Positions 42,701 through 43,124 of a stretch of DNA of 64,000 bases are shown one piece after another. Below the pieces are notes generated by a model. It did not search any database. It was not told where the DNA came from and saw nothing but the letters and a program-made list of their open reading frames with translations. The stretch's first letter is position 1. Each line of letters begins with the position of its first letter. Source of the DNA: Escherichia coli (GTDB taxonomy: Bacteria > Pseudomonadota > Gammaproteobacteria > Enterobacterales > Enterobacteriaceae); NCBI RefSeq assembly GCF_024700885.2, contig NZ_CP117016.1; one strand, written 5' to 3'. The position numbers were made by a program, and so were the translations under genes.

Positions 42701-43124
42701 TGATTCGACAAAAGGGCAGAAAATTATTGGTGATAAAAGTTTATATCTGCTAAGAAATGCGGATTCTAAAAATAAAGGCCTGGGCTTTGCTACTGCGGGT
42801 AATTTTTATCCGGATTTCTTATTGTGGTTAGTCGATGATAAAAGTGGTAAACAATGGCTAAGTCTTATTGATCCAAAAGGCATTCGCAATCTTAATCTTG
42901 ATGATCCGAAGTTCGGATTATATAAAGAAATTAAGAATCTTGAACATAAATTATCGGATGATAACTTATCATTAAGTGCATTTATTGTTTCTGAAACTTG
43001 TTATGTTGACTTAGTAAACGTACCTGACTCAAAAGAAAATCTGGAAGCCAGAAATGTGCTTTTTATTGAGGATACAGGCCCCGTTTATCTGGAGAAGTTA
43101 TTCAGTAAGATGGTTAGCGAGTAA
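39744..43124 (+). CDS. SF2 DExH helicase, Type III Res-like (1126 aa), with C-terminal PD-(D/E)xK-like motif
   Basis: Walker A NATGSGKT (40270-40293), motif II LIDEGHKG (40581-40592), motif VI QLFGRGVRLKG; C-terminal YPDFLLWLVDD...LSLIDPKG (about 42810-42878); ATG 3 bp after the MTase stop, GAGGAGG RBS. Confidence 0.75.
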   Translation: MAKKPTTGKAVKKETNSKLSFHKQLVLNRFMFHFFKDGTLQGLKNRLGEDRFEGIHEDGQSLFFHELSNYLFEVDLIDLDELRRYDLNIVQHWQQITEHRNRKEDTVLNMKYFQYLSLLFTEIYLDWYFNRKQQLLDGLNNELAAYNAENDKTAKDRANQFKSYILDDLNKLAYWNATGSGKTLLLHVNILQYLHYFQNGNTHHYPDKIILLTPDERLSKQHLDELENSGFTQYQLFDKSKSAPFKGTIEVIDINKLADEMGDKTVAVEAFEGNNLVLIDEGHKGTGSAAGAWMRRRDKLTRDGFAFEYSATFGQAVAGGNNVEAVETEIQKKKAKLLFETTALGKLNEEELAQIALTSEEKRDARIQATREVYGKSILFDYSYKFFYEDGYGKESLILNLNPEEDKKDERRYEYFTACLLSFYQQQYLFNKNKEKLSEFNIEKPLWVFVGNTVSGEDSDIHAVLRFLAWFLNHETQAKAWINDLIKNKARILDTKERNIFENRFTALMNAPEDIYADILSRLFNTTHSGQRLRVLNLIGSKGELALQVGEAEPFGLINIGDAPSLYKMCEEDTTFDYQRDDFAKSLFHTLNDKDSRLHILIGSRKFTEGWSSWRVSTMGLLNMGRGEGSQIIQLFGRGVRLKGRNYSLKRSTPGERPKGLHLEKLETLNVFGVRADYMATFKQYLEDEGITPSDEILELNFETRPNMPATRLKTLKLKDGYKDNQRLGFKRVYFPELYEVPADFQGKIKQPHIKLDLYPKLESIDTSRKGDNTPVNVRNEAKLDYKIISAFDFDRLYLAIQNYKLQRGWSNLRVDKQRLIDFCTGKTKIGNSWYTLLIPASELEIKQYADIAKQEDIMLRLLTDYTDRFYNTLKNAYEGQFYEVTQVKEDDPGMIKMYHFEIEETDDGLAYASRLEQLQQLVIDGEIGKAKSWSASGMVAITFDKHLYYPLLSIEKNANIPLKMRPAALGAPSEITFVQDLQSFVDSTKGQKIIGDKSLYLLRNADSKNKGLGFATAGNFYPDFLLWLVDDKSGKQWLSLIDPKGIRNLNLDDPKFGLYKEIKNLEHKLSDDNLSLSAFIVSETCYVDLVNVPDSKENLEARNVLFIEDTGPVYLEKLFSKMVSE

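Follow-up and report, generated by a model that had tools for sequence, protein, structure and literature searches.

The C-terminal PD-(D/E)xK motif of the Res protein in an Escherichia coli Type III restriction-modification operon of the Eco86II kind

Introduction

Eco86II, whose source strain is Escherichia coli NCTC86, is a Type III restriction-modification (R-M) system with m4C methylation (Murray et al. 2021, PLoS One 16:e0253267, PMC8259958). SMRT sequencing and a recombinant clone showed that M.Eco86II, in its native strain and when cloned, places m4C at the 4th base of the asymmetric sequence GAGCC, and strains F9792 and B4103-1 were also given as having GAGCC m4C Type III systems (PMC8259958). 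For the Res protein the motifs GSGKT and DEXH and a canonical C-terminal PD-(D/E)XK motif have already been reported, and Res proteins of this kind were remarked on as diverged (PMC8259958). A partially purified heparin fraction of the native NCTC86 strain, in a buffer with 1 mM ATP, gave partial cutting about 25 bp 3' of GAGCC in pUC19 and pBR322, which each have head-to-head GAGCC sites; Mod and Res were present in the cutting fraction, and peptides of an extra helicase-like protein were absent from it (PMC8259958). This helicase-like ATPase, encoded 5' of mod, is without a nuclease motif, is dispensable for methylation and is encoded together with Mod and Res in over 500 genomes (PMC8259958). 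A full-text literature search returned no later papers naming Eco86II.

The mechanistic paradigm for Type III enzymes is EcoP15I (PMC4490356, PMC4005696), with a Mod2Res1 complex and ATP-triggered sliding between inverted sites. Here we compare with these systems a three-gene operon found in a 64,000-nucleotide stretch of E. coli DNA (the window), with emphasis on the C-terminal part of its third gene product.

Results

The operon and its identity with Eco86II

Three open reading frames follow each other on one strand (+), in the order SNF2-like gene, mod and res:

33707 to 36598, + strand: SNF2-family ATPase of 963 aa, DrmD-like, probably accessory (Pfam, NCBIfam, PADLOC)
36619 to 39741, + strand: Mod of 1040 aa, an M.Eco86II-like beta-class N4/N6 DNA methyltransferase (PADLOC, Pfam, motifs)
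39744 to 43124, + strand: Res of 1126 aa, an SF2 helicase-like ATPase with a predicted C-terminal nuclease, equal to R.Eco86II (PADLOC, Pfam, identity)

The mod gene lies directly 5' of res, and the gap between the mod stop (39741) and the res start (39744) is only 2 nt on the + strand. For the start of mod, the mechanical reading frame begins at a TTG at 36604 (1045 aa) and the RefSeq gene at the ATG at 36619 (MSKYNELV..., 1040 aa).

Gene order is equal to that of Eco86II in NCTC86, with 99.9% DNA identity over 9418 bp, and identity over the operon is 100% with E24377A, F9792 and B4103-1. The window itself is a 100% match to strains such as E24377A, CUVET21-37 and MLI114. At the protein level, Res shows no difference from NCTC86 WP_001085525.1 over 1126 residues and the SNF2-like protein none from WP_000580534.1 over 963 residues, whereas Mod differs from that of NCTC86 at one of 1040 residues, which is F778 here and V there. 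Judged by sequence, the cluster is Eco86II, or an allele of it with one Mod residue changed. The codon of residue 778 (38950-38952) adjoins the AdoMet-binding motif I (FAGSGT) on its N-terminal side, and F778 is also present in E24377A. Of 5426 complete E. coli genomes, 191 contain the 9.4-kb operon.

Mod matches the PADLOC model MTase_III (PDLC03646) end to end with 2207 bits, and Pfam N6_N4_Mtase covers residues 494-817. Motif IV, DPPY (aa 495, nt 38101), is N-terminal to motif I, FAGSGT (aa 779, nt 38953), which is the order of the beta class.

Helicase part of Res

The full length of Res matches the REBASE-derived PADLOC profile REase_III (PDLC03654; 2326 bits, aa 3-1124), and this is its only PADLOC match. 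Pfam matches are limited to ResIII/DEAD, with ResIII at residues 167-293. The SF2 helicase motifs expected of a Type III Res, namely Walker A, DExH and motif VI, are all present, and their key residues are invariant in an alignment of 139 sequences (described below):

40278 to 40292, + strand: Walker A or motif I, GSGKT, aa 179-183 (G181, K182 and T183 in 139 of 139)
40581 to 40592, + strand: Walker B or motif II, DEGH, aa 280-283 (D, E and H in 139 of 139)
41643 to 41660, + strand: helicase motif VI, QLFGRG, aa 634-639 (Q634, G637 and R638 in 139 of 139)

The remainder of the protein is poorly covered by profiles. A Pfam search with full-length Res gave no match in the C-terminal 800 residues, where the C-terminal Type III models were silent, and NCBIfam gave no match to Res. 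A sequence search of the PDB returned only chance-level matches for the single protein (E at least 0.2) and none for a profile of the C-terminal region.

Position and conservation of the C-terminal motif

The initial annotation had pointed to a PD dipeptide about 100 residues from the C-terminus of the third gene product, followed some 20 residues later by hydrophobic-D-x-K, and had likened its placement after the helicase domains to the architecture of Type III Res proteins. Both observations hold. The pattern was located in frame and is conserved in the 139-sequence alignment, and GSGKT, DEGH and QLFGRG are all N-terminal to it. The features of this region are:

42627 to 43121, + strand: predicted PD-(D/E)xK nuclease domain, aa 962-1126
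42666 to 42668, + strand: codon of E975, a conserved Glu in helix alpha1 (138 of 139) and candidate metal or water ligand
42807 to 42818, + strand: YPDF, aa 1022-1025, with the Asp of 'PD', D1024 (42813-42815), at the start of strand beta2
42867 to 42881, + strand: IDPKG, aa 1042-1046, with D1043 (42870-42872) and K1045 (42876-42878) at the end of strand beta3

Residues 1014-1046 of Res read GFATAGNFYPDFLLWLVDDKSGKQWLSLIDPKG, of which GFATAGNFYPDF (aa 1014-1025) is encoded by nt 42783-42818 in frame +1 of the reading frame 39744-43124. No reading frame of at least 80 aa lies on the opposite strand over 42780-42900. The motif is 80-112 residues from the C-terminus of Res and C-terminal to all SF2 helicase motifs; D1024 and D1043 are 19 residues apart, and D1024, D1043 and K1045 are spaced as in PD-(D/E)xK.

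The bare pattern is weak evidence, since 19% of shuffled Res sequences contain its loose form (PD, then hydrophobic-(D/E)-x-K after 10-30 residues). For the strict form, [FYW]xD[h][h]..[h][h](D/E)xKG, the share of shuffled sequences falls to 0.2%.

Conservation was assessed at two depths. A first search for homologues, made with the C-terminal fragment, yielded short, partial proteins only, and full-length diversity came from a later search of representatives. The last 226 residues were compared with 26 homologues at 54-80% identity, all of which keep the block KGLGFAxAGNFYPDFLLW..VD..G.QWL..DPKG unchanged, together with the Glu of the preceding helix. The later search, with Res against 1.84 billion cluster representatives, gave 2493 relatives, and the conservation alignment (n = 139) consists of the query and 138 full-length representatives at 35-60% identity. 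In this alignment E975, P1023, D1024 and P1044 are each found in 138 of the 139 sequences and F1025 in 137. Position 1043 is acidic as D in 120 sequences and as E in 18. At position 1045, Lys is present in 102 sequences and His in 34. The conservation of the catalytic positions equals the level of Walker A, DExH and motif VI.

The 34 sequences with His form (D/E)-P-H-G variants (P0263, P0273, P0274 and others), of which 18 combine D with H and 16 combine E with H. The substitution affects about one family member in four and could point to a PD-(D/E)xH active site whose chemistry is altered. K1056, where the next helix starts, is conserved in 134 of 139 sequences.

Predicted fold of the C-terminal domain

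A Foldseek search of the PDB with a first, low-confidence model gave a best E of 0.047, which is not significant. A second model, of residues 962-1126 with 68 diverse sequences in the alignment, reached a pLDDT of 90.3 and a pTM of 0.86, and its order of elements is that of the canonical PD-(D/E)xK core. Helix alpha1 (model residues 12-26) holds E975 and strand beta1 is YLLRN. Strand beta2 (model residues 64-70) starts directly after P62-D63, which are P1023-D1024 of Res, and strand beta3 (model residues 75-84) ends in D1043-P-K1045 and is followed by a helix and then by strand beta4. Structure prediction had been named in the initial annotation as a way to check the motif, and the model of residues 962-1126, with its restriction-endonuclease-like order of elements at pLDDT 90.3, agrees with what had been proposed.

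The real support for the motif thus comes from its conservation, the predicted fold and its position after the SF2 motifs. The reading in which PD...DxK is a chance pattern in a long protein, with no functional meaning, has on its side the frequency of the loose pattern in shuffled sequences; it is contradicted by the conservation and fold results, and we regard it as having practically no probability.

Loci of relatives and genomic surroundings

The gene content of related loci varies. A Res that is 44% identical belongs to an array of HTH, SNF2, Mod and Res genes (L006 and L007), and for a 35%-identical Res the Mod and Res genes stand alone (L008). In a further locus (L009, 1560-12756) a gene for a UvrD-family helicase and an uncharacterised gene are found 5' in place of the SNF2 gene, and mod and res are separated by a Fic_N gene. 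As the relatives' loci vary in this way, the SNF2 gene appears to be an accessory of one subgroup and no core part of the family. The Res of L009 is longer (1251 aa) and also has a Peptidase_S24 (LexA-like) match.

In Sphaerotilus sp. GCA_034519685.1 (L002, 1870-3704) a pair of genes, for an AAA_15/AAA_21 ATPase and a DUF4276 protein, is inserted between mod and res. We take this pair to resemble the PARIS anti-anti-restriction system. The res gene of the same locus is split in three pieces by IS elements. Regarding specificity, a possible link between Salmonella homologues and the motif GATCAG was considered and proved to be wrong: the literature assigns GATCAG to BREX/StySA.

In the E. coli window the R-M operon stands at the end of a CP4-like island (window about 23000-33000; L001 1529-11090). 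The island encodes an antirestriction protein, Ag43, a JAB-domain protein and a YeeU/CbtA toxin-antitoxin pair, and borders on nanC/nanM and fim genes. Just 5' of the SNF2 gene, RefSeq has a truncated helix-turn-helix regulator pseudogene (window about 33040-33155; L001 11336-11449), and an intact HTH gene is found at the equivalent place in the distant array (L006 2613-2849). This suggests that a controller-like regulator has decayed in E. coli.

On the other side of the operon, 15 nt past the stop codon of res, an inverted repeat begins:

43139 to 43165, unstranded: perfect 12-bp inverted repeat with a 3-nt loop, GTTCCATATCTC tgt GAGATATGGAAC, between convergent genes

The repeat may end transcripts arriving from both sides. 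Since the hairpin is followed by no T-run, it was not picked up by the terminator scan. The gene convergent with res is a 100-aa reading frame at 43171-43473 on the - strand, a RefSeq hypothetical protein for which the NCBIfam and PADLOC searches gave no match. Two reading frames 3' of res, also convergent (43786-44715, - strand), is a gene for a phosphorothioated-DNA-binding restriction endonuclease with an HNH domain (NF045808, 438 bits), and because of this match it appears to be a second, modification-dependent restriction gene on the island.

Discussion

Res as the effector of the system

The identity with Eco86II means that the motif, and the nuclease reading of it, were both already published for exactly the same Res protein. 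The motif finding is correct and ordinary, and as it stands adds little. What is added here is the assignment at the level of residues, a fold predicted at high confidence, figures for conservation across the family, and the alternation of K and H at the third catalytic position. These have some practical value. RefSeq names the protein only as a 'DEAD/DEAH box helicase family protein', and Pfam leaves the nuclease domain uncovered. The assignment of E975, D1024, D1043 and K1045, together with the high-confidence fold, offers concrete targets for nuclease-dead controls.

From the alignment and the model, we conclude that the C-terminal domain of Res is very probably an active nuclease, and hence that Res is the effector of the system. 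That the third gene would be the effector had been proposed in the initial annotation, and the proposal is supported by the conservation of the catalytic positions, by the predicted fold and by the published cleavage by Eco86II. The putative active site would consist of E975 in alpha1, D1024 at the start of beta2, and D1043 and K1045 in beta3, which may act as metal-binding and catalytic residues in Mg2+ binding and the activation of water.

A different reading of the same fold is that the domain has no catalytic activity and is a module for DNA binding or dimerisation, and that DNA in vivo is broken by another protein, such as a host nuclease or a partner recruited by the SNF2 protein. The published cutting was incomplete and was obtained with a partially purified extract, His stands at the Lys position in 34 of 139 sequences, and the operon encodes an extra conserved ATPase; all three would be compatible with such a role. 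However, at 35-60% identity the four catalytic positions match the helicase motifs in conservation, which is unexpected for a degenerate domain. Furthermore, the cutting about 25 bp 3' of GAGCC is Type III-like and was seen in a fraction with Mod and Res, and no nuclease domain can be recognised in Mod or in the SNF2 protein. An inert C-terminal domain is in our judgement quite improbable.

Proposed mechanism

Taking the EcoP1I/EcoP15I paradigm together with our data, a scheme of three steps may be proposed. A Mod2Res1 complex would bind an unmethylated site. Hydrolysis of ATP by the N-terminal SF2 domain of Res, with its GSGKT, DEGH and QxxGRGxR motifs, would then bring the complex into a sliding state. 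On collision with a second complex bound at an inversely oriented site, the two C-terminal nuclease domains would meet, and each would cut one strand. In this scheme the SNF2/DrmD-like gene would be an accessory, dispensable for methylation and for cleavage in vitro.

The SNF2-like ATPase

The more interesting question nearby is the role of the conserved SNF2-like partner. Its Pfam domains are SNF2-rel_dom (residues 42-289) and Helicase_C (437-544). Its best NCBIfam match is the DISARM model DrmD_b, at 667 bits and thus under the curated cutoff of 950, and PADLOC DrmD scores 663 bits. The region from about residue 690 to 963 is without a Pfam domain and has a charged C-terminal stretch, which is probably coiled-coil.

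It is tempting to speculate that the SNF2-like ATPase is a genuine fourth activity, absent from classical Type III systems, which could be needed in vivo and not in vitro, but we hold this to be rather unlikely. Possible roles would be to clear proteins off incoming DNA, to allow restriction at single sites or sites of the same orientation, or to resist anti-restriction proteins. If the idea were true, this Type III subgroup would be a link, in evolution and in mechanism, to DISARM and ARMADA.

Another reading is that the operon is a multi-helicase defence system like DISARM or ARMADA, in which the SNF2 protein is a core component and Res acts in a way that is not of Type III, for instance at single sites or independently of their orientation. 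DrmD is the family that the first gene matches best, ARMADA II likewise joins an SNF2 helicase with a methyltransferase and a helicase-nuclease, and more than 500 genomes have the SNF2 gene beside those of Mod and Res; all three points would fit. The DrmD_b score is, however, under the cutoff, and the operon is without genes for DrmA/YprA, DrmB (DUF1998), DrmC (PLD) and UvrD. Moreover, PADLOC gives only REase_III for Res, some relatives have a Mod-Res pair and no SNF2 gene, and the SNF2 protein is dispensable for methylation and was undetected in the cutting fraction. We consider a system of this kind highly improbable, and prefer a Type III system with an accessory SNF2-like gene.

Comparison with known systems

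The likeness to DISARM class 1 lies in the DrmD-like first gene and the adjoining adenine/cytosine amino-methyltransferase. The nuclease of DISARM class 1 is a PLD protein, whereas here a PD-(D/E)xK domain is predicted in fusion with a ResIII-type helicase. Assignment to DISARM was rejected: the operon contains no DrmA, DrmB or DrmC, the DrmD match is below the cutoff, Res matches no DrmA model, and the flanking genes are unrelated.

ARMADA type II consists of the SNF2 protein ArmA, the PglX-like methyltransferase ArmB, ArmC, which joins a YprA helicase to a Vsr nuclease, and the UvrD protein ArmD (PMC12458937). The gene logic is similar to that found here, with an SNF2 helicase, a methyltransferase, and a helicase with a C-terminal nuclease of the PD-(D/E)xK superfamily. 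ARMADA type II was rejected as well, given that the methyltransferase is of the Type III beta class, that the helicase is of the ResIII type without YprA or DUF1998 in Pfam and PADLOC, and that the operon has no UvrD or fourth gene.

With EcoP1I and EcoP15I the operon has in common a beta-class Mod encoded directly 5' of Res, the N-terminal SF2 motifs of Res and, as predicted, its C-terminal PD-(D/E)xK nuclease. In other respects it differs from them. Mod, with 1040 aa, is much larger here, methylation is m4C in Eco86II and m6A in EcoP1I/EcoP15I, the acid of beta3 is an Asp followed by Pro (DPK) instead of the ExK of those enzymes, and the SNF2-like extra gene has no counterpart in either. The nuclease hairpin of EcoP1I Res, YSPDFAYVVKTAEGDYLNFIIETK, has nearly the same spacing as FYPDFLLWLVDDKSGKQWLSLIDPK here, both following YxPDF ... 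hhh(D/E)xK, and BLASTP and two hhalign runs place YPDF in register with the YSPDF of EcoP1I Res, none of them with convincing statistics. In hhalign the nuclease region aligned to EcoP1I Res at E 0.28 in one run and at E 0.017 with 2.7% probability in the other, over the beta2-beta3 hairpin only, and in BLASTP the nuclease segment gave E 25 and only helicase motifs V-VI reached E 0.012. Since the alignments to EcoP1I are marginal, Res would be a distant member of the Type III kind, which fits the published remark on the divergence of these proteins.
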